Notes: generated from the letters alone by a model not told the origin. A stretch of DNA of 39,054 bases from a virus (IMGVR_UViG_2874945390_000007); one strand, 5' to 3'. Positions 9,424 through 39,054 are shown, counted from the first letter of the stretch. Numbers and translations: made by a program.

Positions 9424-9476
9424 AGCGCGCACAAAACAGGCAAAAACGGGATTTCAGAATCCCGTAAACGATTAAT
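9368..9476. repeat. two copies of a 25-bp palindromic motif bracketing the A stop codon, upstream of parM-like gene
   Basis: aaacgggactcacgaatcccgtaaa (about 9371..9395) and aaacgggatttcagaatcccgtaaa (about 9443..9467); each is an inverted repeat acggga-N-tcccgt. Confidence 0.7.
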
Positions 9477-9499
9477 TAATCAACATAAGGAAAAGCGAC

Positions 9500-10459
9500 A
9501 TGAAAATTTGTATCGACGACGGCTCCACCAACATCAAGCTGGCATGGACTGAGAACGGCGAACGCCGCAACGCCATCAGCCCGAACAGCTTCAAGTCGGA
9601 ATGGTCTGCGCCGTTCGGTGGCATGCAGCCCGCGAACTACATGCTTGATGGCGTGCGCTATGGTTTTGATCCGGTCAGCGATCGCTTTGTCCAGACAACC
9701 GACACGCAATACCAGTACAGCGATGTAAATGTCATTGCCATTCATCACGCGCTGGTCAAATCAGGCATCACGCCACAGGAGGTGGATGTGGTTGTCACCC
9801 TGCCACTGAGCGAGTATTTCGACACAAACGCACAGCCGGACATGGCCAACATCAACCGCAAAAAAGCGAACGTTATGCGCCCGGTGGAGTACCAGAACGG
9901 CGAAGCATTCACTATCCGTAACGTGCGGGTTATGCCTGAATCCATTCCGGCTGGCTTTAAGGCACTGGCTGACATGAGTCCGTTTGAATCCCTGCTGATT
10001 GTGGATTTGGGCGGAACCACGCTGGATGTGGCAAAGGTTCAGGGGCAACTGGCAGGTATCAGCCAGGTGTTTTGCGATCCACACGTAGGCGTTTCTCTGA
10101 TGGCCGATGCCGTACTGTCGGTGATGGCCACTAACGGTATGCGCACCAGTCACCACATCGCCAATACCATTATCGAACATCGCCATGATGAAGCCTGGCT
10201 GCGCCAGCACATCCACAATGACGCGCATTACGCCAGCCTGATGGCGGTTATTCGTGAAAAGGAAGAAACACTGAAACAACGCGTGATCCGCGCGCTGGCG
10301 GGTTTTTCGGGTTACGGGCGGGTGATGGTTGTCGGTGGAGGGGCGGAGATTGTGGCACCCGCTATCCGCGAAGCCTGCGGAGTTAATGCGACTTTCATCG
10401 CGGACGGGGTGCCACAGTTTGCTCTGGTTAATGGGCTGTACGCAATGGACAAGGAGTAA
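9500..10459 (+). CDS. parM: ParM/StbA-like actin-type partition ATPase
   Basis: 319-aa ORF MKICIDDGSTNIKLAW...YSDVNVIAIHHAL...VMPESIPAG...LLIVDLGGTTLD...VMVVGGGAE... aligns along its length with plasmid R1 ParM (StbA); RBS AAGGAAAAG upstream. Confidence 0.85.
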   Translation: MKICIDDGSTNIKLAWTENGERRNAISPNSFKSEWSAPFGGMQPANYMLDGVRYGFDPVSDRFVQTTDTQYQYSDVNVIAIHHALVKSGITPQEVDVVVTLPLSEYFDTNAQPDMANINRKKANVMRPVEYQNGEAFTIRNVRVMPESIPAGFKALADMSPFESLLIVDLGGTTLDVAKVQGQLAGISQVFCDPHVGVSLMADAVLSVMATNGMRTSHHIANTIIEHRHDEAWLRQHIHNDAHYASLMAVIREKEETLKQRVIRALAGFSGYGRVMVVGGGAEIVAPAIREACGVNATFIADGVPQFALVNGLYAMDKE

Positions 10460-10463
10460 ACCA

Positions 10464-10775
10464 ATGACGACACCAACCAGACGGATAAGTTTCTATCTGA
10501 AGCCTGCGGCCGTCAAGAACGAAAGCGAAGCATGCGCCTGGCTGGGCAGCCTTACACCAGAAGCCCGCAAAAGCGGCCAACGCGTGGCTTTTCTGGCCGG
10601 GCTGGCACTTCTGAAAATGAATCCAGCAGAGGCTTACCGACTGGCTGCATGGGCTGACGATGAGGCGTTATCGGTGACACAAACCAGGACAGAACGCCCC
10701 GTGCCACAGCCAGTACCAACCGCACAGATAACCAGTCAGATAGCAGGGAATATCCGGGCATTATTTCCTGAATGA
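10464..10775 (+). CDS. parR: ParR/StbB-like centromere-binding adaptor
   Basis: ORF 10329..10775; ATG 10464 (MTTPTRRISFYLKPAAVKNES...RVAFLAGLALL...) 5 nt after parM stop; N-terminal pattern resembles R1 ParR (RTIAFKLNP...RAALTAGLAL). Confidence 0.65.
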   Translation: MTTPTRRISFYLKPAAVKNESEACAWLGSLTPEARKSGQRVAFLAGLALLKMNPAEAYRLAAWADDEALSVTQTRTERPVPQPVPTAQITSQIAGNIRALFPE

Positions 10776-10835
10776 CGAATTTGACGGCTTTTAATTTTAT
10801 CGGGGTGCACTGTCGCCCCGCACGAGGAAAACACG

Positions 10836-11360
10836 ATGAAAAAATACGAATACATGCTAATGAAAGAAGCACTGCGGGCTGGTCTGGCTCCCTGTCCTGT
10901 ATCCGTAGAAGCTGTTGTTGGGAACACGATTTTCCGAACGCTGCGAAATCGCGTATCCGTGAAGATGGTTCACCAACCACCCAAATCTACCAGCATGATC
11001 TATCTGCCGCTGCCCGAGGCTATCAAACTTATGCGTTCGCTGAAATTTGCGATTTGGATGCAGACACAAATCAACAAAGCGGTGCAAAACACCTTCGTTA
11101 AGAGACTAATACCGGAGCTTGCTGCCAGATGTGCAAAATGTACCAGACCCGCACTTCAATTTGATCTGTCATTGATTCAACAAGCTACGGAGGCAGAACT
11201 GTACCGCCTGTCACCTATCCGTGATGCTCACACGGAAGCATCAGAAATGTTCCGGCTCATGTTTCAATTTAATTTTGCCGTTCGACGCACACGCGTTCAG
11301 GTCAATCGCATGATGCAGGAGCAGGAAGAGTTAACACAGTACAAAGGGGGCAGCCAGTGA
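10836..11360 (+). CDS. hypothetical protein (cargo in variable A-Q region)
   Basis: 174-aa ORF MKKYEYMLMKEALRAGLAPCP...; no recognisable family. Confidence 0.5.
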   Translation: MKKYEYMLMKEALRAGLAPCPVSVEAVVGNTIFRTLRNRVSVKMVHQPPKSTSMIYLPLPEAIKLMRSLKFAIWMQTQINKAVQNTFVKRLIPELAARCAKCTRPALQFDLSLIQQATEAELYRLSPIRDAHTEASEMFRLMFQFNFAVRRTRVQVNRMMQEQEELTQYKGGSQ

Positions 11361-11596
11361 GTAATTCAGCACGACTACAGCTTGGTTTTTCACCGCTATC
11401 AAAAACCATCGTATTGGCAAAAATGCGTGACTTAGGAGACGGAACAAAACGCCGCGTAGGAAATGATCGCGGTCGCGATGTAACCAACGAGGCCGCTCAA
11501 CTCGTTTGGCATCTAGTCATGGCAGAAGGCGGTGAAATTAATTGGGAGCTGGATGATGGTTCTCGTATGATTTTGAGGGCCGAGAAGAGTAAATAG
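11357..11596 (+). CDS. hypothetical small protein
   Basis: 79-aa ORF with GTG start overlapping previous stop. Confidence 0.4.
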   Translation: MSNSARLQLGFSPLSKTIVLAKMRDLGDGTKRRVGNDRGRDVTNEAAQLVWHLVMAEGGEINWELDDGSRMILRAEKSK

Positions 11597-11610
11597 CTCA
11601 AGGGGGATTA

Positions 11611-11796
11611 ATGCTAAATGATGATGAAGAAGAGCTGCTTATGCAGGAATGGTCGCTCGGTGATTATGATAATGGTGAAAATGGGTGCCCGCATTGTGGC
11701 CGTTATCGTTTATGTATCTGCCAGAATGGAAAACACAGATGTGAAAAGTGCAATTGGTCTCCGGAACTTAATGACTACGTGCCGATCGAGTGGTAG
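11611..11796 (+). CDS. small Cys-rich zinc-ribbon protein
   Basis: 61-aa ORF MLNDDEEELLMQEWSLGDYDNGENGCPHCGRYRLCICQNGKHRCEKCNW... with CxxC...CxC...CxxC arrangement. Confidence 0.5.
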   Translation: MLNDDEEELLMQEWSLGDYDNGENGCPHCGRYRLCICQNGKHRCEKCNWSPELNDYVPIEW

Positions 11797-11836
11797 AGGT
11801 AAGTCACACTAGGTGTTTTTTAGTTGATTTTATAAA

Positions 11837-11866
11837 TGCACAATAGTGCACAAATTTGCACAATTT
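11837..11866. repeat. three tandem 10-bp TGCACAA-containing repeats
   Basis: tgcacaatag tgcacaaatt tgcacaattt read directly; period 10 bp. Confidence 0.7.
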
Positions 11867-12235
11867 TTTTGAACGACTTTTTGCCCTTCCGGCCCGCGTG
11901 GCGGCTGGATCCGTCAAGGATCCGTGCATGCACAAAAAAACGCGTTTTTTCTGCGCGCAGGTGACGGGGGAACAGCCCGCGTTTCAGGGGGTAAATAGCA
12001 TTCCCTGAACGATGTCGCAGAGATACAACAGAATGGCTGTATTTCTCACGCTGAGCGTGAAAAAGACGTGAGGGCTTTTGATTTGATGGGGTGAAAGGTA
12101 AGGCCGTCAAAATCGCACTGAGACGGCGAGAATATGCAGTCAACGAGGTGGGATTGCGTAAGAGTCTGACTGTCGATGATGGCAATCAGCAGGAAAGCGT
12201 CGTGAAATTATCTGACTGATACAGGAGCTGGAGAG

Positions 12236-12287
12236 TCGGGGCATAAATTTTTTATGCCCCGGCGAAGCAGCAGACAAGCGAAGCGCG
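12236..12287. other. candidate cos / packaging region adjacent to portal gene
   Basis: Positional (P2 cos lies next to the 3' end of Q); perfect palindrome ggggcataaattttttatgcccc followed by ggcgaagcagcagacaagc, loosely reminiscent of the P2 cohesive-end sequence; exact cut site not established. Confidence 0.35.
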
Positions 12288-13334
12288 TCAGGATGTGGGC
12301 TGGGTGTCTAACAGTGCGTAAGGGTTAAAGCGGATCACCTCTTCGCCAAGCCAGTCATTGATGTGCTTCATGGCCTCCATGACGGGCATCAGCTCGTTAA
12401 TTGCGTAAACCCGCGCGGCCTTCTCCACATCACCAAACGCACTTTTTTCGCCCGGCATCGCCCCCATCAGTTGCGGCGGAACGCGGTGCGCAGCCAGCAC
12501 ATCATCACGGGATGCCGCCTTAACATTCATGAACTCATCCTTTGCGGTGATCTGCTGGAACGGCAAAATTTGCACCCCCTCTTTGCCCCCGTTGGGCGCA
12601 TGAATGAGCACGTTTTTAAACGCACCACCACCACGTGCCCCCTGTAGCGTTTCTTTCAGGGAGTCCATGCTTTCGCGGTTTACCTGCGCTGCACCGATGT
12701 AGATGATGCACCCGGCGTGGGATCCGTTGTCGTAGTACAGTTTTCTGAACATGTCCGCCGAATGAGAAAGGCTGGCCGAGAGTAATGCGCCAAGATATTC
12801 CGGCATGCCGTAGATTTCCTGGTTAATATCCGGATTCATCAGGTGGCACACTTTGCCAGGACGAAACTGAAACGCATCCTTGCCATCCTGCACATACCAC
12901 CATGATTCAAGATCGCTTCCGCGTCGCATGTATTTCGCCAGGGCGTGCCGTAATTTAAGCGGTTCGCCGAGCATATTGCTCCGAAGCTCAAGGAATGCGT
13001 TACCGAACACAAACCAGTCCAGCGCCAGCGCCGAGAAATCCTGCCGGGAAAGCAGCGGGTGCGGAATATAGCAGCCGAGCAATACATTGCGCTTAAAGTA
13101 AAGCGCAGACTGATGCCAGGACGTTTGCCGGGCAGCTCTTGCCAGACCGTACCAGTCCACCGGGGTTTCATACCACCGCCCGTTATCAGCACAGTACATA
13201 TTGTCCAGCAGGTCATGCCCGGTCAGGCGGTAAGGACCATCAAATGTGAATGCACTGAGCGACGATTCTTTCCTGAGCGCATCAGCGAGATCAATGCGTG
13301 AACTCATGCGCACTTTTTTATTTTTTCTGCTCAT
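12288..13334 (-). CDS. Q: portal protein, P2 gpQ family
   Basis: 348-aa ORF; size and position (leftward, paired with terminase, next to cos) as P2 Q; start ATG overlaps P stop. Confidence 0.85.
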   Translation of the reverse strand: MSRKNKKVRMSSRIDLADALRKESSLSAFTFDGPYRLTGHDLLDNMYCADNGRWYETPVDWYGLARAARQTSWHQSALYFKRNVLLGCYIPHPLLSRQDFSALALDWFVFGNAFLELRSNMLGEPLKLRHALAKYMRRGSDLESWWYVQDGKDAFQFRPGKVCHLMNPDINQEIYGMPEYLGALLSASLSHSADMFRKLYYDNGSHAGCIIYIGAAQVNRESMDSLKETLQGARGGGAFKNVLIHAPNGGKEGVQILPFQQITAKDEFMNVKAASRDDVLAAHRVPPQLMGAMPGEKSAFGDVEKAARVYAINELMPVMEAMKHINDWLGEEVIRFNPYALLDTQPTS

Positions 13335-15085: not shown

Positions 15086-15239
15086 TGCTCCCCCTGAGTA
15101 ATTACAGGAAGATTACCCGCGCGCGAAACCGTTCTCCTTAACCCCCTGTTCTGGCCGTTTTCTTACAACAAAAGCCCTTTGTATCAGCCTGTTACGCTTT
15201 GCCATCATGACTGAAGAACCAGTCAGAGGGGCAAAAACT

Positions 15240-16076: not shown

Positions 16077-16099
16077 TAAGACAAAGGAGCAAATTTTTT

Positions 16100-17152: not shown

Positions 17153-17197
17153 TCAACTCACGGCGGGCATCATGCCCGCCTGTAACGGAGAGAAAAA

Positions 17198-17998: not shown

Positions 17999-18090
17999 CG
18001 ACTGACCCCGTCAGCGGGCGGCGTGCGCGGTGTTCCGGTTTGGCTCCGTGACCGTTTACACCGCGCACCCACCGCCCGATTTTTTCAGGA

Positions 18091-18594: not shown

Positions 18595-18791
18595 TGAAAG
18601 TGAAGACACTGGAAGGCGACACCGTGGATTCGCTCTGTTTCCGGTACTACGGCACGACGCAGGGCGTCACCGAAAAGGTGCTGGATGCCAACCCCGGACT
18701 CTGCCGACAGGTATTTCTGGAAGCCGGACAGGAGGTGGAAATGCCGGAGCCGGAGAAGAAAAAACAACGAGAGATGATACAGCTATGGTAA
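18594..18791 (+). CDS. X: tail protein X (LysM-like), P2 gpX family
   Basis: ATG 18594 overlaps L stop; 65-aa MKVKTLEGDTVDSLCFRYYGTTQGVTEKVLDANPGL... Confidence 0.8.
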   Translation: MKVKTLEGDTVDSLCFRYYGTTQGVTEKVLDANPGLCRQVFLEAGQEVEMPEPEKKKQREMIQLW

Positions 18792-22178: not shown

Positions 22179-22181
22179 ATC

Positions 22182-26197: not shown

Positions 26198-26731
26198 TCA
26201 TTCTGGTTGTTCGGGAAACGTTACTGGCAGGCTGGAGGTGTCTGTGGATTCGACCTTCTGCGCATAGAGCATCCACTCGGTTAATTTTTGTTTATTCTCG
26301 TCGGAAATAATGCCCAGCCGTAGCTGTGAGTCCCATAGCTGGGTTTTATCCCTGACGAGCTGTAGCAGGCTTTGCTTTTCATTTTCCGCTTGTTGCCTCT
26401 GCTCTTCCCCGGTATAAGTTCGCTTTATCACTACGCCATCTTTGAACATCCATTTACCTGAAATATCAGCCCGGCGATTTGCTGTAATATCAGGAACCTC
26501 AACGACGCTTGCGCCTTCCGGATTAATTGCTGAAACATCCTTTTCAATACAAATAATAACGCCGTTGTGGTCATAGACCATTTTCAACGTATCAGGCTGA
26601 AAGTTCTTTTGTTCCTCATACCAGTTTTTCCCATCCTCTGTATAAAGCCATTTGATGTTAAATTGTTTCGTTAGCTGGTATTGCTCTTTTGTTTCAGGAT
26701 TACCAGCAGAAATGTTTTTTAAGTGCATCAT
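26198..26731 (-). CDS. alternative tail fibre assembly chaperone (Tfa'), silent-orientation copy
   Basis: 177-aa [43 protein letters not shown]... paralogous to the plus-strand Tfa with divergent C-terminus. Confidence 0.85.
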   Translation of the reverse strand: MMHLKNISAGNPETKEQYQLTKQFNIKWLYTEDGKNWYEEQKNFQPDTLKMVYDHNGVIICIEKDVSAINPEGASVVEVPDITANRRADISGKWMFKDGVVIKRTYTGEEQRQQAENEKQSLLQLVRDKTQLWDSQLRLGIISDENKQKLTEWMLYAQKVESTDTSSLPVTFPEQPE

Positions 26732-26733
26732 CG

Positions 26734-27678
26734 TTAAATACTCCCCGCGTTATACCACGTCCCATTAATGCAATACTGAATTGGCCTTGCCTGAGTTGTA
26801 TCAATTAGTTCATCTCTGTTTGAGTTAACGGAACCGGTAACAACATAACCTGACCTGTCAGACCATCCGGGACCATTCCATGTCTGAACAGATAACAGAC
26901 CACCAAGGCGAATACCTGTAATAAACCTTGAGTTACATTCTGCCTGCGTATATGCACCAACATCTCCCGCAGAGGGTTTGCGGGTTGTGGTGTAAAACTC
27001 TGACCAGTCAGCTTCAAAGCCATAACCATCACGCGCTGAACGATAAAAAATACCGCCGTTCCTGTAATTCACGCGGAACTGTACAGCAGGGCAGCTCCCC
27101 GTATTCATATTGAAGTGGAGGATTAATGTCGATGCGCCACCAATGTTTGCGTTATAGACCCCGCTATTCCAGTTCCAGCCAACAGCTTTATCATTTCCGA
27201 CAGTGCTTCCTGTTTGCCCTAAAGCAAATGCAGGTTGTTGATTTTTCGTGTTGTAGTCTCGTCGCCAGCCAGGAGCGTAAGCATCACCATGATTAATATA
27301 AGTGAATTGAGCGTTAGTAATTCCGCCACCGCTGGACGTGCTCGGCGTGGTAACGCGTATGGTCATTGCGCCGCGAGTGCCAATAACTTCCACCACAGCA
27401 CCTGCAAGACAAATATTTCCGCAACCTGTATCTGTAATGACCTTATTATTTGCATAAGCCCATGAGCCTTTGCACATCCAGTAAGGATGGTTAAATGCTC
27501 CCTGACTCTCCAGCCACGAAATAAATTGCGCGGTTGTCCAGACCTGACTATCGCCACCAATATTCAGCCATGAGCTATATGCGCGGCAGGCACCAATATT
27601 TTTGGTGAAGGTATCTTTCCCCGGAATATCTGCGCCGTTCTGGTTTTTCTGTAATGCGCCAGAAGCCTGATTTACCGT
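26734..27678 (-). other. alternative tail-fibre C-terminal cassette (H variable part, silent orientation; no own start)
   Basis: Minus-strand frame ...LQETVNQASGALQKN...CINGTWYNAGSI is collinear with the H region after the crossover site but has a different receptor-binding C-terminus; ORF-track N-terminal extension to 27834 reads through the crossover site into the IS and is not a real start. Confidence 0.8.
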
Positions 27679-27704
27679 TTCCTGTAAACCGAGGTTTGAG
27701 GTGT
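27679..27704. repeat. right crossover site for DNA invertase (gix/pix-like)
   Basis: ttcctgtaaaccgaggtttgaggtgt; inner half-site identical to left site in inverted orientation, outer half-site more degenerate. Confidence 0.75.
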
Positions 27705-27739
27705 ACTGGCAATAGCGGACACTACCATTTGTTCTTTTT

Positions 27740-28558
27740 TTAAGCAGCCATCTGATGATATTTTTCCCTGAAGGCTGCCGGGGAGATATTCCCCAGACGA
27801 GAGTGACGACGCTGACGATTGTAGAAAATCTCAATGTATTCCCGTATTACTGAGATGGCTTCATCCCGGTTATTAAAACGATAGTGGCTCAGGCTCTCAT
27901 TTTTCAGCGTTCCCCAGAAGCTTTCCATCGGAGCGTTGTCGTAACAGTTACCTTTACGCGACATTGATGTTTTCAGACCAAACTGCTCCTGTATGACCCG
28001 GTAATCGTATGCGCAGTACTGTGAACCTCGATCAGAGTGGTGGATTAGCCCGGCAGGTGGGCGCTGGCTCCTGAGCGCCATAAACAGGGCTTTACCTGTC
28101 AGCTCTTTTGTCATGCGCTCTCCCATGGCGTAGCCGACAATTTCGCACGTATAAACATCTTTGATGCCAGCGAGGTACAACCATCCCTCCTGTGTGGCAA
28201 CATACGTCAGGTCCGCCACCCAGACCTGATTTGGTGCTGTAGGAGCGAACGTCTGGTTCAGCAGATTTGGCGCAACTGGCAGATTGTGGTTCGAGTTCGT
28301 AGTCGCTCTGAACTTGCGTTTCTGCTTACAGCGTAGCCTTAGCTCCTTACGAAGACGTGCCAGTCGGTCACGACCAACGATGATGCCATTCTCTGCCAGC
28401 TCCGTCTGGAGCCGCCGGGTTCCATATGTTTCGCGAGTGCGGATATGTGCCACCTTAATCTCCAGTTTTAGCCGCTCATCACTTTGTTTTCTGTCTGAGG
28501 GTTCATGCTGTACCCAGTTGTAATAACCGCTCCTGGATACACCAAATACCTGACACAT
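27740..28558 (-). CDS. IS3-family transposase OrfB (catalytic DDE domain; expressed as OrfAB fusion by -1 frameshift)
   Basis: 272-aa ORF with ...VWVADLTYV...GWLYLAGIKDVYT...HHSDRGSQY...CYDNAPMESFWGTLK... typical IS3 OrfB. Confidence 0.9.
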   Translation of the reverse strand: MCQVFGVSRSGYYNWVQHEPSDRKQSDERLKLEIKVAHIRTRETYGTRRLQTELAENGIIVGRDRLARLRKELRLRCKQKRKFRATTNSNHNLPVAPNLLNQTFAPTAPNQVWVADLTYVATQEGWLYLAGIKDVYTCEIVGYAMGERMTKELTGKALFMALRSQRPPAGLIHHSDRGSQYCAYDYRVIQEQFGLKTSMSRKGNCYDNAPMESFWGTLKNESLSHYRFNNRDEAISVIREYIEIFYNRQRRHSRLGNISPAAFREKYHQMAA

Positions 28559-28593
28559 CGCTTCAATGGGAAATTGTTGTCGCCATTGTTCGA

Positions 28594-28896
28594 TTAACGC
28601 GTATTTTTCAGCGACTCCTGTGCAAAATACGCTGTTGCTTTTTTTAATATATCTCGCTCAAGGCGAGCTTCATTTAACGCCTTACGCAGTTGCAGAATTT
28701 CAGATTCCAGTTCAGCCACCGTGCGGGAACCAGGAGTACCGAGCCCTTTTCTGGCGGCGGTAACCCATTGTCCTAAAGTGCCTTCAGGAAGAGATAATCG
28801 GGAAGCGCCTTCACTGATCGAAAGTTGATTTTCAAGAACCGTTCTGACAGCTTCGGCTTTGAACTCTTTAGAGTAACGTTGGGTTTTTCTGCTCAT
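28594..28896 (-). CDS. IS3-family transposase OrfA (HTH/leucine zipper)
   Basis: 100-aa ORF MSRKTQRYSKEFKAEAVRTVLENQLSISEGA...; slippery TTA AAA AAA GCA near its 3' end (complement of 28638..28649). Confidence 0.9.
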   Translation of the reverse strand: MSRKTQRYSKEFKAEAVRTVLENQLSISEGASRLSLPEGTLGQWVTAARKGLGTPGSRTVAELESEILQLRKALNEARLERDILKKATAYFAQESLKNTR

Positions 28897-29025
28897 TATT
28901 AGCTCCTTCTGATGCCATTCTATTTCAGGAAGGAGTGTCCGTTAAACTCAGGCTACCTCAGTTTTAGATAATGGCCGTTTCCGGCCTGCATGGCATGATT
29001 TGCGCTTTTGGACGGGAGATTCAGC

Positions 29026-29613
29026 GTGCTGATTGGCTATGTAAGGGTATCAACAAATGACCAGAATACAGACCTGCAACGAAACGCTCTTGTTTGTGCA
29101 GGATGTGAACAAATATTTGAAGATAAATTAAGCGGGACAAAGACAGACCGACCGGGATTAAAACGCGCTTTAAAGCGCCTTCAAAAAGGTGACACGCTGG
29201 TTGTCTGGAAACTGGATCGCCTCGGGCGAAGCATGAAACATCTGATTTCTCTCGTCGGGGAACTACGGGAGCGAGGAATTAATTTTCGCAGTCTGACCGA
29301 CAGCATAGATACATCTTCTCCAATGGGGCGTTTTTTCTTCCACGTGATGGGTGCCCTGGCTGAAATGGAACGTGAATTAATTGTTGAACGTACACTGGCC
29401 GGACTGGCGGCAGCACGCGCACGGGGGCGCACAGGCGGACGTCGACCGAAGCTGACAAAAGAACAGCATGAGCAAATAGCAAGGCTGATCAAAAACGGGC
29501 ACGACAGAAAACAACTGGCAATAATTTACGGCATTGGTATATCGACGATTTATCGTTACCACCCCGCAGGAGAATCAATCGGAACAATAGAGAAGAGTCA
29601 GGAAACAAAATAA
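29026..29613 (+). CDS. pin: serine DNA invertase, Pin/Gin/Hin/Cin family
   Basis: ORF 29008..29613 (TTG); preferred GTG start 29026 giving (M)LIGYVRVSTNDQNTDLQRNAL...LVVWKLDRLGRSMKHL...GINFRSLTDSIDTSSPMGRFFFHVMGALAEMERELIVERT... nearly collinear with e14 Pin; catalytic Ser in YVRVST. Confidence 0.92.
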   Translation: MLIGYVRVSTNDQNTDLQRNALVCAGCEQIFEDKLSGTKTDRPGLKRALKRLQKGDTLVVWKLDRLGRSMKHLISLVGELRERGINFRSLTDSIDTSSPMGRFFFHVMGALAEMERELIVERTLAGLAAARARGRTGGRRPKLTKEQHEQIARLIKNGHDRKQLAIIYGIGISTIYRYHPAGESIGTIEKSQETK

Positions 29614-29641
29614 CCGCTAATCTGACCATTAGCGGTTTTTG
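29613..29641. terminator. hairpin terminator between convergent pin and U
   Basis: accgctaat-ctgacc-attagcggt followed by ttttt; complement side also followed by a T-rich tract. Confidence 0.6.
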
Positions 29642-29648
29642 TGTTAAA

Positions 29649-30143
29649 TCAGAACAACCCTTTAACTGAACTGGCCGCGCTGTTAAGGGATGATGTTACC
29701 TTATCTTTGAAGCCGGACAGCATATCGCTGAACGATGAGGATTGCAGGCGCTCCCGCAAATCCTCATCACAGCGTTCAAGAGTCAGTGAAAATTCTATCT
29801 TTTTCGCCTTACCGTAGCGATCAAACTCGGAGCGGGTCGTATTCGTTTCGGTCAGGACATACATGCCGTAAATCTGCCCGACGCCATCAATCAGAGGCCA
29901 GGGTCGTCCTGTATACGCCTGCGTGGTCAGCAGCGACAGCGACACTTCGCCACCTGTAATTTCAGGATAAAGCACACCAGAAAGAACGATGCGCTCATCA
30001 CCTGCACCGATATACTGCCAGCTTGCCGAACGGTTAACGCGTTCATTTTTCACATGCCGCCAGCTTTTGTTTTGCTGTAACTGCTGATGCGGCAATGTAC
30101 GCAGCTCAAAAACAAACATGCCGTAGATCATCATCATGGCCAT
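29649..30143 (-). CDS. U: tail protein U
   Basis: 164-aa ORF ...FVFELRTLPHQQLQQNKSWRH...GRPWPLIDGVG... resembling P2 gpU. Confidence 0.8.
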   Translation of the reverse strand: MAMMMIYGMFVFELRTLPHQQLQQNKSWRHVKNERVNRSASWQYIGAGDERIVLSGVLYPEITGGEVSLSLLTTQAYTGRPWPLIDGVGQIYGMYVLTETNTTRSEFDRYGKAKKIEFSLTLERCDEDLRERLQSSSFSDMLSGFKDKVTSSLNSAASSVKGLF

Positions 30144-30149
30144 GACTCC

Positions 30150-32993
30150 TCAATCTTTATCGTAAAAACTGCCACGCCCGGCACGGGCGCGCCGTTCCAT
30201 TTCTGCCCTGACCATTTCACCGACCAGTTTCGCCAGTTCGCGGGGATTCTGCGTAACAACGTTATGCAGATGAACATGAATTTCACCACCAAATCCGGAG
30301 GCAACAGGCTCCCGGTTACGGGAAGTTACAGGAACTGATGCCACTGGAGAGCGTATGGCCTCCGCCACCGGGCGGGAGCTGGCCGCAACAACAGGGACCA
30401 GCGCCGGAGGCAGCGGAGCCGGGACCACGGGTGTGATATTAATTGCGGGGGCAGGCTTACTGACCTGCGCAATCTTCCGCTCCTGCCACTCCCCACGAAC
30501 AGCAAGTGCGCGGGGCAGGTTCTTAAAGACAATATCGCCGGGGCCAATGCGTTTTTTCGTCTCATCAACCAGCTTACCTGTGTTATCAGCAATTTTGCTG
30601 AGTCTGCGTAGCGTCCCGGTATTGCTGTCTGTGAGCGGTTTGTTGTCTTTGGGTTTATCACCTCCGGTGCCATTGCCATTTTCCACAGGCTTCGGCGGAT
30701 TGATTTTCGCCAGGTTCCCCTGAAGCAAGGCAACCTTGTCCTGAAGAATGGCCGCACGCTGTGCGTCTTCGATTTTCTTGCGCGCCCTTTCCGCTTCATC
30801 CGGAAGGACGCCAAGTTTTTCAAGTATCCACGCCAGCGTATCCAGTAGCATTTTTGCAGGTGTCAGAACAAGTTGTAACGCACCGCCAAGAACGTTACCG
30901 AATATCTCGCCAGCACTGGCACATTTATCCAGCGTTTCCTTGCTGGACTCCATCGGTGACAGCAGCGATTTAAACCAGTTAAAGACCTGAATAATCCCAT
31001 CGCGCACGACATCAAAAACAGGGCCAAACCGTTCAAAGGTTTCGCGCAACGGGGTCAGCCTTTCCATAATCCCGCTGAACACCCCGGCAAAAAATGCCCT
31101 GATGGGATCCCAGTATTTCCAGATAAGAACGGCAGCTCCGGCAAGCGCAGCCACGATAAGACTAACCGGACTGAACAGCGCCCCGATAGCGCCACCAAGT
31201 AAAGAAACGGAACCCGTCACCATTCCCCATAATGCAGGCAGAACCCTGACAACATTCATTGATTCGGTCAGGAGAGAAAAACCGAGACGCAACGTAGCCA
31301 GCTTCCCGTGAAGCACCCCAATAACCAGAGACAACGAACCAACCGTTGCTGTTGTCGCCAGCAGTGCGCCTCCCGCTATCAGTAACTGGCGCGTCAGTGC
31401 CGGGTGGGCCTGCGCCAGCGCCGTCACCTTTGAGACAACCCGCGTGAGCCACTGCGTGACAGAACGCAGCGGACCGTCAACCAGATCACTGATGCGAATA
31501 CGCAGACCTTCCCATGCACTGCCGAGTGATTTCAGGTTGCCATCAAGGTTATTGGCCATAACCTTTGCCGTGCGTTCTGCCTCACCGCGCGCGCCTTCAA
31601 GTTCTTTTCTCAGTTTGGCTAAGAAGCCGTCACCTGCCGCATCAACGAGGCCCATAAATGATGTGAAAGCCTCTTCTCCGGCAATGTCCTTAAAGAACGA
31701 TACCCGGTCAACCTCCCCGTATTTGCGGGTGGCTTTATAGAGATCGGCCAGCACATTCTCCATCGGGCGCATTTTGCCTTTGGCGTCAGCAACTGACACC
31801 CCCAGCTCTTTCAGTGCTTCTGCCGCTGCCTTTGGCGGTGATGACAGATTGGCCAGGCTTTTACGCAACGCTGTACCTGCATCACTCCCCCTGATACCCA
31901 TCTTCGCCAGCACGCCCGCCATCGCTGCGGCCTGCTCCAGCGATATTCCCAGCTTACCCGCCACCGGACCTGCATATTTCATGGTTTCGCCCAGTGCGCG
32001 AAGGTCAGTGTTGGTACGGGTAAACGCTGCGGTAAGTGTGTCACCGACCCGGTCCATCTGGTCAGCAGAGAGGCCGAACTGCGTCAGGATATTGGAACCA
32101 ATATCCGCCGTCTCGCCGAGGTCCATACCGCCAGCCGTTGCCATGCTCAGCACGCCGGGAAGCGCAGCCTGAATGGCCTGCGGTGTGAAACCAGCCATTG
32201 CAAGAAATGCCTGTCCACTGGCGGCATCGCCTGCGGTGAACTGCGTTTCAGAGCCAAGTTTTAACGCCTGCTCACGCAGCGCCTTAAACTGCGGGCTGTT
32301 TTTATCGATTCGCGTCAGTGCCTGAACACGGGACATCTCTTTCCCGAACCCGATAGCGGGCTGCAAAAAACGCCCGGCAGCATAGCCGCCCGCTGCCGCC
32401 GCACCTGTTGCCAGCGCACCACCTGTTTTCAGTTTTCCCGCTGTTTCCTGCGCGCGTGAATACCGCTCACGCGCCTGCGTTACACGCGCAAGCGCCCGCC
32501 GTTCGCGTTCAAGCTGGTTGTTGTATTGTCCGGTGCGTCTGATGGCCTGCTGGATGGTGTTATCGCTGCCTGTCAGGGAAATGCCGTGGCGTTTCAGCTC
32601 TCCGCCAAGTTCCCGCATTTTCTGAATTTCCCGTGTGCGCGATTCATTCAGGCGTTCAAGCCGGGTGCTTAACTGCTGCATCAGCTTTTGTTGTTTTTCG
32701 CTGAGCACTGTACCCGTGCGTTGTAACTGATTAAGGGCGTTAAGCTGGCGTCGTGCTTTCACGATGCCCGCATCCGCTTTACTGACAGCGTCACGGGCGC
32801 GCTCAAATGAACGCGCCTGACGCTCGAGATTTTTGATCGCCCCCTGCGTTCGCTGGATGGAGTCACCAAACTGCCCCATCAGGCGGCGGGCGTTTTCGGC
32901 AGGCCGGGTCAGCCTGTCAACGGCGCTGAAAGCGACCCGGATATCAAGAGTCTTCATTGTCTGCATTCCCGCTGCGAAGTGCCGCCCGCTCAC
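30150..32993 (-). CDS. T: tail tape measure protein T
   Basis: 947-aa ORF, helical/Ala-rich with central hydrophobic segment; position between E/E' and U. Confidence 0.88.
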   Translation of the reverse strand: MSGRHFAAGMQTMKTLDIRVAFSAVDRLTRPAENARRLMGQFGDSIQRTQGAIKNLERQARSFERARDAVSKADAGIVKARRQLNALNQLQRTGTVLSEKQQKLMQQLSTRLERLNESRTREIQKMRELGGELKRHGISLTGSDNTIQQAIRRTGQYNNQLERERRALARVTQARERYSRAQETAGKLKTGGALATGAAAAGGYAAGRFLQPAIGFGKEMSRVQALTRIDKNSPQFKALREQALKLGSETQFTAGDAASGQAFLAMAGFTPQAIQAALPGVLSMATAGGMDLGETADIGSNILTQFGLSADQMDRVGDTLTAAFTRTNTDLRALGETMKYAGPVAGKLGISLEQAAAMAGVLAKMGIRGSDAGTALRKSLANLSSPPKAAAEALKELGVSVADAKGKMRPMENVLADLYKATRKYGEVDRVSFFKDIAGEEAFTSFMGLVDAAGDGFLAKLRKELEGARGEAERTAKVMANNLDGNLKSLGSAWEGLRIRISDLVDGPLRSVTQWLTRVVSKVTALAQAHPALTRQLLIAGGALLATTATVGSLSLVIGVLHGKLATLRLGFSLLTESMNVVRVLPALWGMVTGSVSLLGGAIGALFSPVSLIVAALAGAAVLIWKYWDPIRAFFAGVFSGIMERLTPLRETFERFGPVFDVVRDGIIQVFNWFKSLLSPMESSKETLDKCASAGEIFGNVLGGALQLVLTPAKMLLDTLAWILEKLGVLPDEAERARKKIEDAQRAAILQDKVALLQGNLAKINPPKPVENGNGTGGDKPKDNKPLTDSNTGTLRRLSKIADNTGKLVDETKKRIGPGDIVFKNLPRALAVRGEWQERKIAQVSKPAPAINITPVVPAPLPPALVPVVAASSRPVAEAIRSPVASVPVTSRNREPVASGFGGEIHVHLHNVVTQNPRELAKLVGEMVRAEMERRARAGRGSFYDKD

Positions 32994-33473
32994 GCCAGCT
33001 AACCACTTCGCCGGGCGTCATCATGAAGATTTCGGCGGGCGACCAGTTAAAAATGGCGGCAATATCCGCCACAAAGTCTTCTATGTGCTCAAAGCACACA
33101 ACCGTGATCAGGCTTCCGTCGCCTGTTCGTTCTTCTCGCCAGAGTCCGCACCGCTCAAAAAATTTACGGCAACCACACATAACTGAATAAAGTCACGGGA
33201 TGCCATTTTTTTGATCGTCACTTCATCCAGTCGCGGTGATGTCACGCGTGACAGCAGCGTAAACATGGATTCCGCTTTCAAATTCAGCACATCAGACAGC
33301 GACAAATCTCGCAGAGATCCAGCCTGCTCAATAGCCCCGGTGATCTCCACATACGTGATTTTTTCGCCGCCTCGCTCAATTGGTTGGGTAAGTTTTACGC
33401 CACGCTCACTGGTTTCTTTCACAGTGTCAGCAACGACCGTGTTTTCGGTATCGATGTTTTTCGTCTCTTTCAT
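32944..33473 (-). CDS. E+E' programmed -1 frameshift product
   Basis: Minus-strand -1 frame ORF (32944..33180 in track) continues from the A7 slippery run inside E and overlaps the start of T, as for P2 E/E' and lambda G/GT. Confidence 0.6.
33108..33473 (-). CDS. E: tail assembly chaperone E
   Basis: 121-aa ORF upstream of T; contains slippery A7 run (complement of 33204..33212). Confidence 0.75.
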   Translation of the reverse strand: MKETKNIDTENTVVADTVKETSERGVKLTQPIERGGEKITYVEITGAIEQAGSLRDLSLSDVLNLKAESMFTLLSRVTSPRLDEVTIKKMASRDFIQLCVVAVNFLSGADSGEKNEQATEA

Positions 33474-33527
33474 CAGGAAACTCCTTTCAGTCAGAGGCGA
33501 CGCACTGCGCCGCCTGCATATTACTTA

Positions 33528-34040
33528 TCAGCCAAGCCCGAGCGCGGAACGGATGCGATCGGGCACAATGTCCCTGCCGTCCTTCCGGTAAATGAAGTTC
33601 AGCAGGTCAATCTCCCACAACGGGCGATCGTTAACACTCAGCTTGTAGTAGGTGTTTTTAATGGCGTAAGTGTGTGATGTGGCTTCGCCCTGTTTGGCTT
33701 CCCCCATATCAATTTCCGTCACACGTCCGCGCATTTCGACTTCATACAGGTCGCTTTCAGCGTCGGTGTAGTATTCACCCGCAAAACGCAGCAGCGTACC
33801 GTCAATCGTGCCGCCATACTTAAGGAACAGCTCACGAACTGCGCCCCCCATGACAAAGCTCGCATCAAGCGCGGAGTCATCCAGGCCGAGATCAATACTT
33901 ACCGCTCCCATCATGCCACCACCCCGGTAGCTGTCGGTTTTGCGCGTCAGCTTAGGCAGAGTGACGGACGTCACCTTACCCACTTCGTTTTCACCATCCA
34001 CAAACAGCGTAAAAAAGCGAAGATGTTTTGGTACAGCCAT
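33528..34040 (-). CDS. FII: tail tube protein FII
   Basis: 170-aa ORF; size and position as P2 FII. Confidence 0.85.
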   Translation of the reverse strand: MAVPKHLRFFTLFVDGENEVGKVTSVTLPKLTRKTDSYRGGGMMGAVSIDLGLDDSALDASFVMGGAVRELFLKYGGTIDGTLLRFAGEYYTDAESDLYEVEMRGRVTEIDMGEAKQGEATSHTYAIKNTYYKLSVNDRPLWEIDLLNFIYRKDGRDIVPDRIRSALGLG

Positions 34041-35224
34041 CAGGCACCTCCCAGCACCGCAAATGCGGGACCAAAGAATTCATCAGTAAACGACTGGTAA
34101 AGCTCCATGTCTTCCAGCGGGGGAACAGGCGTATATTTGTAGCGAATACGCACGCGCCCCTGACGTAAATTCGTGGTGCCGTTATCCACCACGTCATACC
34201 AGCACGACGCCCCAATCAGTTTCCCGGCAGTAACCAGTGAATCCAGTTTTGCCCTGATGGCACCGATAACATCCTTCACGTTCGCAGGCGTCAGTGGACT
34301 GTCGATGGTTTCAAACTGCGCTTCCGCAATTGAATCAGCCAGCACCTGTGCGGTTCGGGTATACACCTCAAAGATGTAGGCGTTCGTTTCCGGTGTGCGG
34401 TTGCCCCAGAAGCGGAACCCGTTGCGACGAATAATGGTCGTGATTTCTTTGTTGTTGAGGCTGTTGGCATCACTGTCTTCGGCCTGCAACGACCAGAACA
34501 CATGCCTGGACATCCCCAGCACATTTTTAACCGGAACGTTGGACAGCGATTTGTGCCAGCCCTGCTCATGGTCAATGTACGCACGAAGGCCGCACGCATA
34601 GGCAGGCGCGGGGAACGTTTCGTTTTTGCCACTTTTCGGGTTGTAGGCGATGAAGTCCGGCCATAAGAGCATCACCTCACGTTCGTTGAATTTCTGGCGG
34701 TAGGTAATTGCCTCAGCCATCGTGTTACAGTCATGACATGAGGCATACACAAACGCGCGCAGTTTACCCGCAATCACGCACAGGGATTTTGTCACCGCCT
34801 CCGTGTCCAGCTCCGGCGCGGCCAGAATACGCGGACGGTATCCGATGCTTTCATCCTGCTCTGCAACAAGCAGCGCATACATCCCCGTATAGCTGCCGTC
34901 AGATTCAGAACCACCGATAACCAGTTGATCCTGCGTTTTTCCGTCTTCTTCTTTGTGTTCAGCCACGCGAACGACGATCACCTTTGTGCTCACCTGGTCT
35001 GCGATGGCCTTAAGCGCACGATAAAGCGTCCCCGTTGTTCCGCATTTTCCCAGCACGTCATTGACGCGGGGCAGCAGTGTGGGCTTGTTCAGCGGGAACA
35101 GCTCCGCGTCCGCATCATCCGCCGTTGCCACGATACCGATAACGCTGGAATCAACATCGTTAATCGCTGTTACCAGGTCGGTATTTTCCGTAACACGGGC
35201 ACCATGAAAACGAGTTTCACTCAT
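34040..35224 (-). CDS. FI: contractile tail sheath protein FI
   Basis: 394-aa ORF with ...FPLNKP..., ...KLRAF..., ...LLWPDF..., ...DHEQGWHKSLSNV..., ...IRRNGFRFWGNRT..., ...YTRTAQV..., ...YKYTPVPPLE... matching P2 gpFI. Confidence 0.92.
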   Translation of the reverse strand: MSETRFHGARVTENTDLVTAINDVDSSVIGIVATADDADAELFPLNKPTLLPRVNDVLGKCGTTGTLYRALKAIADQVSTKVIVVRVAEHKEEDGKTQDQLVIGGSESDGSYTGMYALLVAEQDESIGYRPRILAAPELDTEAVTKSLCVIAGKLRAFVYASCHDCNTMAEAITYRQKFNEREVMLLWPDFIAYNPKSGKNETFPAPAYACGLRAYIDHEQGWHKSLSNVPVKNVLGMSRHVFWSLQAEDSDANSLNNKEITTIIRRNGFRFWGNRTPETNAYIFEVYTRTAQVLADSIAEAQFETIDSPLTPANVKDVIGAIRAKLDSLVTAGKLIGASCWYDVVDNGTTNLRQGRVRIRYKYTPVPPLEDMELYQSFTDEFFGPAFAVLGGA

Positions 35225-35381
35225 AGCTTCAACCCCTTGTATCCGTTAAATGATTCGGCAACAATCATCACCCACCACGCGCGTAATCTCACCCCTGCGC
35301 CATTCTCCCGCCACGGCGACAACAAAAAGCAGTAACCCCCTCCGCACGCACATGCGACCATGCCACACAGGGAGGGAGCAG

Positions 35382-36491: not shown

Positions 36492-36716
36492 GCAACTTAA
36501 ATGTATTAACTCAGAACGGATCAACACACTCACAACATAGAGTCAATATAGCTGCTCGCTTTGTTCCAGCAAGGATGCCTATTTCTAAGGAAAAACAGAG
36601 CAGAAACATATGGTGTTTTCCTACCTGACATCAGGGGTGGTAAGAATCATGCTTTGATAACCAATTGATAACTATTATTATATTAATCTAACACCATTGA
36701 CATAGTTGAGGTTTGA

Positions 36717-38219
36717 ATGAACAAAAAGCTGTATTTATTCCCAGACTCAAACATTTTTCTACAATGCAAGGACTTGACGCAGGTAAATTTTTCCGAGATT
36801 ACTGCTTGTGATGAAGTATGTATCATTATTACAAGGCCCATTCAGCAAGAGATTGACCGCCAGAAAGGGCAAGGTAATTCCCGCCTATCCAAAAAAGCAA
36901 GGAAGGCTGCTAGCCTATTTAATCAAGTAGTTGATTCAACTGACATGACTCTTGTTATTCGTGAACGCTCGCCGCGAGTTTTTCTTACCATGGATCTAAG
37001 CCTGAAACCATGTGAACAGTTATCTGAACAATTGGATTATCAGGAGGCCGACGATCGTTTTGTTGGTATTGCGGCAGGGTATTGCGCTGACGATCCAGAT
37101 TCGGAGGTGGCAATCATTACCAATGATAGCGGTCCACGTTTTTCAGCAATAAAACATAATATAATCTGCTATAAAGTGCCTTCTTCATGGTTGCTTCCTG
37201 CTGAGCCAGATGAAAAGGATAAACAAATTAAATTGCTGGAAGCTAAGCTGAAGCAATTCACTCAGTCTATGCCCGATTTCAGCATTAAAGTAGCCGATGA
37301 CGAGCAATTAAATATTGTACTTCCTTATTATACAGCTTTATCTGAATATGAAGTTGATAATTTGCTTTGTCAACTAACGGATGCATTCCCATTGGTTACA
37401 AACTTTGACAATGAACAAACTACCCCACAATCACTAGAAAAAATCATCAAGTCATTTAGTCAACAGGAGTATTTCCCTGTATCAGCAGATGATATTTCTC
37501 TTTATAAAGAAAAACATTATCCACTTTGGAAAAAGCAGTGTGAAGAAATACTGAAAAACTGTCATACTCATATTAATCCGAAGGCAATAAATTACCCGCT
37601 GTCGTTTTTATTACAAAACACAGGTTATACTATCGCTGAACGTGCTGTGGTAACATTTACAGCAAAAGGAGATTTTCGTCTGTGTGGATTTAATTGGGAG
37701 ATAATGGAAGAGCTGACTGAAAGCAAAAGGATTGACCTACCTTCAGCCCCTACCGCCCCCAAAGGAAAATGGCGTAGTGTATGTGGCGTAACAGAAAGAA
37801 TGCCTTACGCTGGGGGAGCTTTGGAAACACCGCTATCCAGTATAATTTCAAAAGAAATTGGTCCTTTGTTATCTCTTACTCCAACAGAAAGGGATAAAAA
37901 CGATTTTTATTATAAAGAAAAGAGAAATGAGCCAGTTCAAGTTGTATCGCTGGAATGCGAAGAGTGGCGTCATCAAGTCAAAGAAGAAATATTCCCGTTG
38001 TTCGTATATACAGCCAACAAACCAAAGAAAGTGAATGGTGCAATTGAGGTGAGAGTTGATGCAAATAACCTTACCAATCCGGTCATTAAAACATTTAAAT
38101 TAAAAATAACTATAGAAGAACATAGTGCATTTTCAACCATAACAGAAATGGTGCAGACATACATTCAAGAGCAGAAGAAAAGACAGAAAAGTTCTATTAG
38201 CGCACAAATCAAAACATGA
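36717..38219 (+). CDS. PIN-like nuclease domain protein (N-terminal PIN fold, about 350-aa C-terminal region of unknown function); candidate defence gene
   Basis: 500-aa ORF; N-terminus MNKKLYLFPDSNIFLQ... (first acidic residue), ...QQEIDRQ..., ...DDRFVGIAAGY..., ...VAIITNDSGP... fit the four-acidic-residue PIN pattern; visibly AT-rich relative to flanking D and ogr; AT-rich promoter-like upstream region with TTGATA hexamers. Confidence 0.6.
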   Translation: MNKKLYLFPDSNIFLQCKDLTQVNFSEITACDEVCIIITRPIQQEIDRQKGQGNSRLSKKARKAASLFNQVVDSTDMTLVIRERSPRVFLTMDLSLKPCEQLSEQLDYQEADDRFVGIAAGYCADDPDSEVAIITNDSGPRFSAIKHNIICYKVPSSWLLPAEPDEKDKQIKLLEAKLKQFTQSMPDFSIKVADDEQLNIVLPYYTALSEYEVDNLLCQLTDAFPLVTNFDNEQTTPQSLEKIIKSFSQQEYFPVSADDISLYKEKHYPLWKKQCEEILKNCHTHINPKAINYPLSFLLQNTGYTIAERAVVTFTAKGDFRLCGFNWEIMEELTESKRIDLPSAPTAPKGKWRSVCGVTERMPYAGGALETPLSSIISKEIGPLLSLTPTERDKNDFYYKEKRNEPVQVVSLECEEWRHQVKEEIFPLFVYTANKPKKVNGAIEVRVDANNLTNPVIKTFKLKITIEEHSAFSTITEMVQTYIQEQKKRQKSSISAQIKT

Positions 38220-38462
38220 GGGTGTACTCAAATAATACAATGCTATAGTAAATCTATAAGTGCATAACTATTTCCTGATCTTTTCCCAAAATAGATGACA
38301 GGATAAAAAACATTCCAATCTTTTACAGGCTTTGGATAAATCGTATCAAAGCCTATTTCTTCAAGAGTTAAATCACCGCTTTTCGCTCGAAACGGACTGG
38401 CTGTTGGAGTATGAGCCAGAACAACTTAGAATAGCCCCTGCACTACGTTAAGGGAGGTCGCT

Positions 38463-38723
38463 ATGTTCCGTTGTCCGCTTTGTGGCGCATCTGCCCGTAT
38501 CCGCACCAGTCGTCCGGAAAATGATTCAAACACCGTGCGGCAAAAGTATTACCAGTGTAACAATCTGGAATGCGGCGTATGCTTCTCAACACTGGAAGCT
38601 TTCCATAAATTCACATCAAAACACGCCTCCGGCGTTCACTCTTCAGAAGATATCCCGTGGCATGATCTGCCAGCTTCACACAGGGGAAACAATCAGATGA
38701 GCTTGCCTTTACCTCAGAATTAA
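38463..38723 (+). CDS. ogr: late gene transcriptional activator, Ogr/Delta zinc-finger family
   Basis: 86-aa ORF MFRCPLCGASARIRTSRPENDSNTVRQKYYQCNNLECGVCFSTLEAFHKF... with CxxC...CxxxxC as in P2 Ogr. Confidence 0.9.
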   Translation: MFRCPLCGASARIRTSRPENDSNTVRQKYYQCNNLECGVCFSTLEAFHKFTSKHASGVHSSEDIPWHDLPASHRGNNQMSLPLPQN

Positions 38724-38783
38724 CAGGCAGAATTGCCGGAGTAACAAAAAAGCGATAGATTACGCGCGGGTGCCTTTCGGCTG

Positions 38784-38996
38784 ATGGTCGGAGGGAATAC
38801 CCGAAGGCCAGATGTGGAAAGGCCCCGGAAAACATCTCTGTTTAACCGAGGCCCTAACCGCATTACCTTGACAAGTGAAAGGTTAGCGCCTCTCCGGAAA
38901 AGGAGCAAGTGCTATGTCGCAAAAATCGCTTACGACCATCACGTTCTGCGTGACGGCAATCCTCATCATCTGGATGTTGCACGGTTCGCTGTGTGA
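38784..38996 (+). CDS. possible Mok-like overlapping reading frame
   Basis: 70-aa ORF overlapping the hok-like start in another frame, same size class as R1 mok; support is positional only. Confidence 0.3.
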   Translation: MVGGNTRRPDVERPRKTSLFNRGPNRITLTSERLAPLRKRSKCYVAKIAYDHHVLRDGNPHHLDVARFAV

Positions 38997-39054
38997 AATA
39001 CGGATGAGCTTCTGGGGAGCGGAGTTTGCGGCGTTCTTACAGTGTAAGCAGTAA
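38914..39054 (+). CDS. Hok/Gef-family type I toxin (46 aa), not in ORF track
   Basis: ATG 38914 with AGGAG upstream; translation MSQKSLTTITFCVTAILIIWMLHGSLCEIRMSFWGAEFAAFLQCKQ has TM helix plus SLCEIR and AAFL motifs shared with Hok/HokA; stop codon is the last 3 nt of the window. Confidence 0.7.
   Translation: MSQKSLTTITFCVTAILIIWMLHGSLCEIRMSFWGAEFAAFLQCKQ

Follow-up and report, generated by a model that had tools for sequence, protein, structure and literature searches.

The 39,054-nucleotide stretch of viral DNA IMGVR_UViG_2874945390_000007 (hereafter, the window) begins with a short segment of host chromosome and continues into a P2-family prophage that carries a parMR operon, encoding an actin-like DNA segregation ATPase and its adaptor protein, and, at its far end, a gene for a Hok-like toxin. 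The two modules are independent backbone or near-backbone genes of the P88-like phage lineage and not a coupled kit of the plasmid R1 type; they lie 28 kb apart in the prophage, in different transcription units, and no functional link between them was seen. The explanation that we favor, with a probability of about 0.5, is that parMR would handle circular phage DNA in the extrachromosomal phases of the phage cycle, whereas hok would be a separate function linked to phage release; this explanation draws on sequence comparison and on analogy with other prophage systems. It differs from the original prediction, which treated parMR and hok as the two stability modules of plasmid R1 and considered, along with repurposing of both, a phage-plasmid ancestry or lifestyle of the element.

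The parMR operon and its upstream region

The parM gene (9500..10459, plus strand) encodes a protein of 319 amino acids that matches the Pfam families StbA_N (2.7e-82) and ParM C-terminal domain (1.3e-68), aligns with ParM of plasmid R1 (residues 2-316 with residues 2-318 of PDB 1mwk; E-value 8.5e-93) and retains the nucleotide-binding motifs IDDGSTNIKL, DLGGTTLD and GGGAE. The parR gene (10464..10775, plus strand) starts 4 nucleotides past the parM stop codon and is preceded by an AAGGAG ribosome-binding site. Its product, the adaptor protein of 103 amino acids, belongs to Pfam Plasmid_stab_B (StbB/ParR; 2e-23) and PHROG 2515, and no solved structure was matched by its sequence. The identification of both proteins is correct, far beyond chance, and the claim of the original prediction that homologs of ParM and ParR are present on a P2-like, integrase-bearing element is borne out by the Pfam matches and the end-to-end alignment with R1 ParM. 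Both genes are already annotated in the RefSeq genome of phage P88 and in PHROGs.

Among the related loci, ParM is 319 residues long in 86 of 86 and ParR is intact in 83 of 84. The median pairwise ratio of nonsynonymous to synonymous substitution rates (dN/dS) for parM is 0.049, with dS reaching 0.24; by this measure the gene is under strong purifying selection, and the operon is functional as far as sequence can tell. In ParR, the N-terminal RRISFYLKP and the C-terminal tail NI(R/Q)ALFPE are conserved across 48 distinct sequences, and the linker is variable. We also observe that parR is mosaic across the 84 related loci: its first 17 and last ~10 residues are nearly invariant and the middle falls into at least three divergent allele groups, with apparent recombination breakpoints near 10516-10531 and 10617, next to a parM gene that is 98-100% conserved.

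Directly upstream of parM is the gene for the P2-type replication endonuclease gpA (6601..9423, plus strand; 940 amino acids), identified by annotation; a Pfam Phage_GPA domain is encoded at the same position in distant relatives. The gpA proteins encoded beside parM in other genera are 785-907 amino acids long compared to 940 here, and palindrome 1 of the pair described below falls in the additional C-terminal portion. On the other side, the portal gene Q (12288..13334, minus strand), assigned from the annotation of P88 and its relatives, forms the far border of the gpA-gpQ interval, which is a hotspot of anti-phage cargo in P2-like phages (PMC9122126). Between phages, homology is lost precisely at the stop codon of parR, and the cargo beyond this point differs from phage to phage. 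In the window, this variable cargo (10836..11796, plus strand) comprises orf174, a DUF7446 protein of 79 amino acids and a zinc-ribbon protein of 61 amino acids, all outside parMR as delineated by Pfam, PHROGs and PADLOC comparisons and by the homology break; orf174 has no family match, and the three genes fill the space between parR and the cos/portal region. Thus, parMR occupies the same A-Q slot as tin/old and other cargo of this interval (PMC9122126), but it is the constant, A-proximal part of the interval in the P88-like lineage, with the variable cargo starting after the parR stop. Rousset et al. (2022) have counted a 'putative plasmid partitioning system' in roughly one in four P2-like phages, together with a speculation on phage-plasmids (PMC9122126); therefore, both the observation of parMR and the idea behind the original prediction were already in print.

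The relatives of ParM point to an old association with phages. In a protein search, a tight cluster with at least 92% identity is followed by homologs from Hafnia and Plesiomonas (62-63%), Serratia (57-58%) and Enterobacter (54%), and then by plasmid ParM proteins near 50%. The four intermediate homologs (54-63%) are all encoded in the order Phage_GPA, parM, parR, variable cargo, portal, terminase, and three homologs with 52% identity or less adjoin Rep3, ParA or TraG/TraU genes, that is, plasmid or integrative and conjugative element contexts. In a neighbor-joining tree, which carries no support values, the phage-context ParMs form a clade of 16 leaves that excludes those from plasmids and integrative and conjugative elements. 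Among 50,697 phage records, ParM was detected only in 14 records of the Xuanwuvirus type and in the P1-like phage-plasmid D6 (48% identity). The distance to plasmid systems is substantial, with 66.6% nucleotide identity to plasmid parM over part of the gene and 52% amino acid identity to the ParM of an IncL/M plasmid, the ParR of which could not be aligned by BLASTP with ParR of the prophage. Judging from these sequence relationships, parMR represents a long-standing branch within the type II (actin-like) partition systems that is specific to phages. A ParM 98% identical to that of the prophage, also in a phage context, is found in NZ_JBQPOM010000071.1, labeled 'Vagococcus sp.', most likely a case of contamination or a mislabeled assembly.

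The region upstream of parM contains two direct repeats of 42 nucleotides, 73 nucleotides apart, each with one 20-bp palindrome that is a candidate ParR binding site. Palindrome 1 (ACGGGACTCACGAATCCCGT, 9373..9392) is located in the 3' end of gene A, and palindrome 2 (ACGGGATTTCAGAATCCCGT, 9446..9465) in the gap of 76 nucleotides between A and parM, and together they might constitute a minimal parC. No third copy of the palindrome or the repeat was found anywhere in the window. Across 82 related loci, the palindrome arms are conserved and the centers are variable, and an analogous pair of CGGGA...CCCG repeats, 72 nucleotides apart, is present in a Plesiomonas phage. The palindromes were also considered as terminators on the plus strand and rejected, given that neither is followed by a T-run on that strand.

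The comparison with the ParMRC system (parA/stb) of plasmids R1/R100 brings out both the kinship and the divergence. The gene order (cis site, parM, parR) is the same, ParM is full length with its motifs and the ParR family is shared. However, parC of R1/R100 consists of ~10 direct iterons that flank the promoter, whereas the prophage has the two palindromes alone, with no iteron array around a promoter; in the IncL/M plasmid relative, a promoter-like stretch is flanked on either side by short T-rich iterons. Between gene A and parM, neither a sigma-70-like promoter for parMR nor a plus strand terminator was identified. With no recognizable promoter of its own and no intervening terminator, parMR is probably transcribed together with the early replication operon.

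Prophage borders, the hok locus and genomic distribution

The first 1594 nucleotides of the window are host DNA, with btuE and btuC on the minus strand and the first base of btuD, and the prophage, ~37.7 kb in total, begins at 1678. It is an intact-looking, ordinary P88-like phage (Xuanwuvirus, Peduoviridae, P2 family) inserted in the ihfA terminator adjoining btuC. In Escherichia coli K-12, btuC and ihfA are neighbors with only the ihfA terminator between them, and the window matches K-12 through aaagaaaaaaggccgcagagcggcc and diverges afterwards. This 25-nucleotide sequence, which is the ihfA terminator and is present in a single copy in the empty site of K-12, constitutes the attL core (1653..1677). 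The same 25 nucleotides recur as the attR core at 12320-12344 of L002 (E. coli O111 strain 11128) and continue into ihfA. L002 is 99.7% identical to the last 4 kb of the window, and its coordinates are converted to those of the window by adding 26,999. The att core rebuilds the ihfA transcription terminator at attR after integration, and the region (1653-1677 and L002 12264-12420) is also matched by the Rfam small RNA family STnc540 (43 bits; gathering score 38). The tyrosine integrase is encoded at 2828..3806 (minus strand; RefSeq annotation of the identical prophage).

The left 12 kb of the window match (megablast) the chromosomes of E. coli O26, O111, O103 and O145, where the annotations include an integrase, a replication endonuclease, 'plasmid segregation protein ParM' and 'plasmid partitioning/stability family protein'. 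At the right end the annotated genes are the tail sheath, a gpD-like protein, a PIN-domain protein, ogr and 'Hok/Gef family protein', followed by ihfA-pheT-pheS. Of the sequenced phages, P88 (the type species of Xuanwuvirus) and its relatives are nearest. P88, which was obtained by mitomycin C induction (PMC5285337), has 97% nucleotide identity to the 9400-12300 query over the shared parts (63% of the query covered), 99.7% identity in ParM and 93% nucleotide identity in the hok locus, and its gene table shows the same order as the prophage, including the inverted tail module and the invertase.

The last backbone gene before hok encodes the late activator of the ogr/Delta family (38463..38723, plus strand; Pfam Ogr_Delta, 5e-14). 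The hok gene itself (38914..39054, plus strand) encodes a toxin of 46 amino acids that matches Pfam HOK_GEF with 29 bits against a cut-off of 22 and PHROG 251 ('MokW-like host killing', 1e-22), and is annotated in RefSeq as 'Hok/Gef family protein'; like parMR, it is already covered by the RefSeq annotation of P88 and by PHROGs. The window ends with the hok stop codon, which leaves attR, the terminator and the 3' fbi element outside. Because attR is ~265 nucleotides farther than the hok stop at 39054, hok is inside the prophage. The alternative raised with the original prediction, a host-encoded hok outside attR, is ruled out by the att cores in K-12, in the window and in O111 strain 11128, and the presence of a hok-like killer homolog on the prophage is confirmed by HOK_GEF, PHROG 251 and this position. 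In phages with different integration sites, hok comes after ogr in every case in which the ogr end is available, and hence hok travels with the phage; relatives inserted beside yecA, dmsA and flk show the same layout at whichever phage end is present.

Several features of the hok mRNA are those of type I toxin-antitoxin loci. A mok-like frame of 70 codons found in the open reading frame lists (38784..38996, plus strand) overlaps the hok start and, by the family criterion, would couple hok translation. The 5' leader (38768..38927, plus strand), which includes the tac element GGGUGCCUU and would encode the putative antisense Sok, is matched along its full length by the Rfam sok model with an E-value of 1e-9, but the 48.4 bits are below the gathering score of 59. 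A scan of the window and L002 at the gathering threshold yielded neither the sok nor the hok family, and sok emerged in the permissive scan alone. No consensus promoter for an antisense sok was found on either strand. The tac element is complementary to AAGGCACCC at L002 12112-12120, 57 nucleotides beyond the window end and ~345 nucleotides downstream of tac, and in the predicted structure of lowest energy (z -7.4) the tac-fbi pairing closes the fold; neither tac nor fbi varies among six loci, hokW among them, hence no covariation could be counted.

The closest characterized counterpart is hokW-sokW of the Shiga toxin 2 (Stx2) prophage Sp5, an experimentally proven type I toxin-antitoxin with a detected sokW RNA (PMC8621323). 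The hok locus of the prophage is 82% identical to the Stx2-phage locus over ~375 nucleotides, Hok has 46 amino acids in both, tac and fbi are identical, and both loci are on functional integrated temperate phages. However, Sp5 is a lambdoid Stx phage, whereas hok of the P2-family prophage is the last gene before attR, after ogr. With hok/sok of plasmid R1 the locus shares the Hok/Gef toxin, the 70-codon mok-like frame, the predicted 5'-3' fold-back and the sok leader match, although it is prophage-borne, is nearest to phage hokW rather than to plasmid loci, and has the sub-threshold sok score given above. By homology, the attR-proximal end of the prophage appears to carry a type I toxin-antitoxin locus of the hokW-sokW type.

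Both modules are overwhelmingly chromosomal. The parMR allele is present in 1307 of 5426 complete E. coli genomes (~24%), in 1455 places, 1453 chromosomal and 2 on plasmids; the hok allele has 1980 chromosomal and 17 plasmid places. The genome counts are similar (1307 for parMR and ~1228 for hok). The two modules occur together in seven records, namely P88, 520873 and a circular record from PLSDB, according to their gene tables, and P884B11, Chuche, PhiR44_2 and Shae_phiSM, where both DNA queries were matched; 569R5 and 500465-2, which are partial prophage predictions, were left out of this presence-absence comparison. Near-identical matches in PLSDB are prophages in very large replicons, one linear fragment record of 26.8 kb and the circular record of 34,461 bp. 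The latter, the E. coli 'plasmid' pZ1323PEC0009-2 (NZ_CP148288.1), comprises a whole P88-like genome that is closed at attP and includes both modules. This record also contains a pair of Com and DNA-methyltransferase genes between hok and attP. The early region of the pZ1323PEC0009-2 phage is chromosomal in 1725 of 1727 places, including one integrated copy, 99.9% identical, in another strain; the circle is most simply interpreted as excised phage DNA.

Other genes of the prophage

Between attL and the integrase, at 1787-2825 on the minus strand, there are two cargo genes that are absent from P88. One encodes a coiled-coil protein of 145 amino acids with a C-terminal membrane-like segment, annotated as DUF1640, which shows weak coiled-coil matches to defense-protein models, and the other a protein of 166 amino acids with a weak zinc-ribbon match. 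An invertible tail-fiber segment (26198-29613) includes alternative tail-fiber and assembly genes on the minus strand (26198-28558) and a DNA invertase gene (29008-29613), and the adjacent sheath-tube-tape measure block (29649-35224) is on the strand opposite to the other late genes, as in P88. Between the gpD-like gene and ogr, in an island of low GC content (0.39-0.45), is a gene (36717-38219, plus strand) for a protein of 500 amino acids with an N-terminal PIN_4 domain and ~350 residues without a family match, with no match in PADLOC or PHROGs. This protein looks like phage cargo and might be a nuclease-based defense component or a toxin. PADLOC contained no defense model matching ParM, ParR, Hok, the PIN protein or the hotspot cargo.

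Possible functions of parMR and hok

P2-type phages replicate as, and package from, circular monomers and therefore offer a substrate for a partition system. In the explanation that we favor, parMR would probably be part of the early replication transcript; once ParR had bound the two conserved palindromes upstream of parM, ParM filaments would push apart or position circular phage genomes, both after infection but before integration and after excision during replication. The outcome could be improved replication, packaging or inheritance by daughter cells, as with AlpC/AlpA of the Corynebacterium glutamicum prophage CGP3. We infer the timing of expression, the binding of ParR to the palindromes and the biological role from sequence features. 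AlpC/AlpA is induced early, binds sites upstream of its operon, tethers circular phage DNA to filaments and is needed for efficient replication (PMC4446434). Like parMR, AlpC/AlpA/alpS combines an actin-like ATPase with a DNA-binding adaptor and upstream sites in an integrated prophage (PMC4446434, PMC5539076); however, the host and the phage are unrelated, AlpC is a distant actin-like protein whereas the P88-like protein is a close ParM homolog, and the likeness is one of description. With this proviso, AlpC/AlpA seems to be the best functional analogy for parMR.

For hok, homology suggests silencing by the antisense RNA in the lysogen. The toxin most likely would fire upon induction, aiding lysis and release; in the hokW-sokW system, the antitoxin disappears on induction and phage release is doubled (PMC8621323). 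Killing of cured cells and abortive exclusion are conceivable side effects, and a use of hok in prophage stabilization or exclusion, as entertained in the original prediction, is possible.

A more specific proposal, which we consider nearly as likely as not, is that P88-like phages and their P2-family relatives possess in ParMR a cytoskeletal system dedicated to the virus, with a phage-only clade of ParM and a minimal two-palindrome centromere, that would be switched on with gene A and would move circular genomes in establishment and lytic growth rather than maintain a plasmid. Several observations weigh against the role that we favor for parMR and hok or against parts of it. Variants of the palindromes do not covary with the ParR alleles; the lack of covariation fits the invariant N-terminus of ParR but supplies no positive proof of ParR binding. 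Palindrome 1 is part of a coding sequence, so its conservation may partly reflect the protein, and a centromere of two sites would be far smaller than any characterized parC. The lack of a consensus promoter is also compatible with a weak or ParR-regulated one, in which case expression in the lysogen would be possible. The ParM tree has no support values, and the short-contig homologs P0023 and P0026 fall outside the phage clade. The very existence of the 34,461-bp circular record allows for an episomal state. Finally, the role of hok is borrowed from a locus of a lambdoid phage with a Hok protein ~74% identical (by eye from the alignment).

The most serious competitor is a facultative phage-plasmid, in which parMR would keep the prophage as a circular episome at low copy number, for instance in cells with an occupied or missing attB, and hok would kill the cells that lose it. 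A complete ParM/ParR pair under purifying selection and the pZ1323PEC0009-2 circle, closed at attP with both modules aboard, would fit this scheme; it has been voiced in the literature (PMC9122126), and D6, the only other ParM-bearing phage in the phage collection, is a true phage-plasmid. Nevertheless, we consider it unlikely. The prophage sits between attL and attR with its integrase gene and att sites intact; 1453 of the 1455 parMR places are chromosomal, and so is, in 1725 of 1727 places, the early region of the very phage that forms the circle, down to the nearly identical integrated copy. The circular contig could simply be excised, replicating phage DNA from the sequenced culture. Furthermore, gpA is the sole replication gene among the annotated genes of the identical prophage and of P88, and no plasmid-type replicon is among them, although no dedicated Rep-domain search was run over the open reading frames; in P2, gpA belongs to the repressed early operon. 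The promoter-embedded iteron array of plasmid parC is missing as well. Phage-plasmids of the P1, D6, N15 and SSU5 types also carry partition genes, and the ParM homolog of D6 is 48% identical to that of the prophage, but these phages lysogenize as plasmids with plasmid replicons, whereas P88-like phages have an integrase and att sites and are found integrated. The plasmid-like state that the original prediction proposed to look for in related genomes comes down to one circular record of 34.5 kb against 1453 of 1455 chromosomal copies, and the phage-plasmid ancestry or lifestyle that it proposed is not supported; this chromosomal state, the ParM relatives in the same phage slot and gpA as the only annotated replication gene speak against it. 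Likewise, while ParMRC of R1/R100 is a plasmid system, the ParM of the prophage belongs to a phage-only clade and is itself chromosomal in >99.8% of its occurrences, and this context argues against plasmid stabilization as the normal role of parMR.

Interference with competitors, whereby parMR expressed in the lysogen would disturb incoming phages or plasmids through partition incompatibility or centromere titration, with hok causing abortive infection, strikes us as quite improbable. Such a role would agree with the location of parMR between gpA and gpQ, a documented anti-phage hotspot (PMC9122126), with the report that hok-sok of R1 lowers the plating of T4, as far as it is cited in PMC8621323, and with the several divergent ParR alleles, which could reflect diversifying pressure. 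However, parMR is outside the variable part of the hotspot, its slot is the same in phages from five genera, with ParM identities as low as 54%, and no PADLOC model matches ParM, ParR or Hok. Moreover, no promoter was detected for expression in the lysogen, and all alleles share the ParR N-terminus and the palindrome arms, with no sign of specificity switching. That parMR and hok are inert relics, captured once from a plasmid and carried passively without a function, is hardly tenable: this idea would accord with the lack of a reported experimental function for parMR of P2-like phages in the searchable literature, but the parM dN/dS of 0.05, the frames intact in all 86 ParM and all but one of 84 ParR loci, the synteny conserved across genera, and the invariant leader, tac and fbi of hok in P88-like and Stx phages alike all speak against it.

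For the most part, the present analysis confirms database annotation and a published remark; parMR and hok are a common rather than unusual feature, already annotated and mentioned in the literature (PMC9122126), and what they represent is neither a phage-plasmid nor a new stability strategy. As a practical warning, chromosomal annotations such as 'plasmid segregation protein ParM' or 'Hok' are not evidence of a plasmid origin. Searches of the literature for Xuanwuvirus, P88 and prophage ParM returned no functional study of parMR in any P2-like phage. A ParM/ParR pair under strong purifying selection is present in an integrating phage in ~24% of complete E. coli genomes, and the phage-specific clade, the fixed position after gpA, the lack of an own promoter and the two-site cis element turn its role into a testable question in a tractable host. 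Should ParMR indeed serve the phage as a cytoskeletal system of its own, no other phage actin-like system would be as widespread in a model host, given the presence of ParMR in about a quarter of E. coli genomes.

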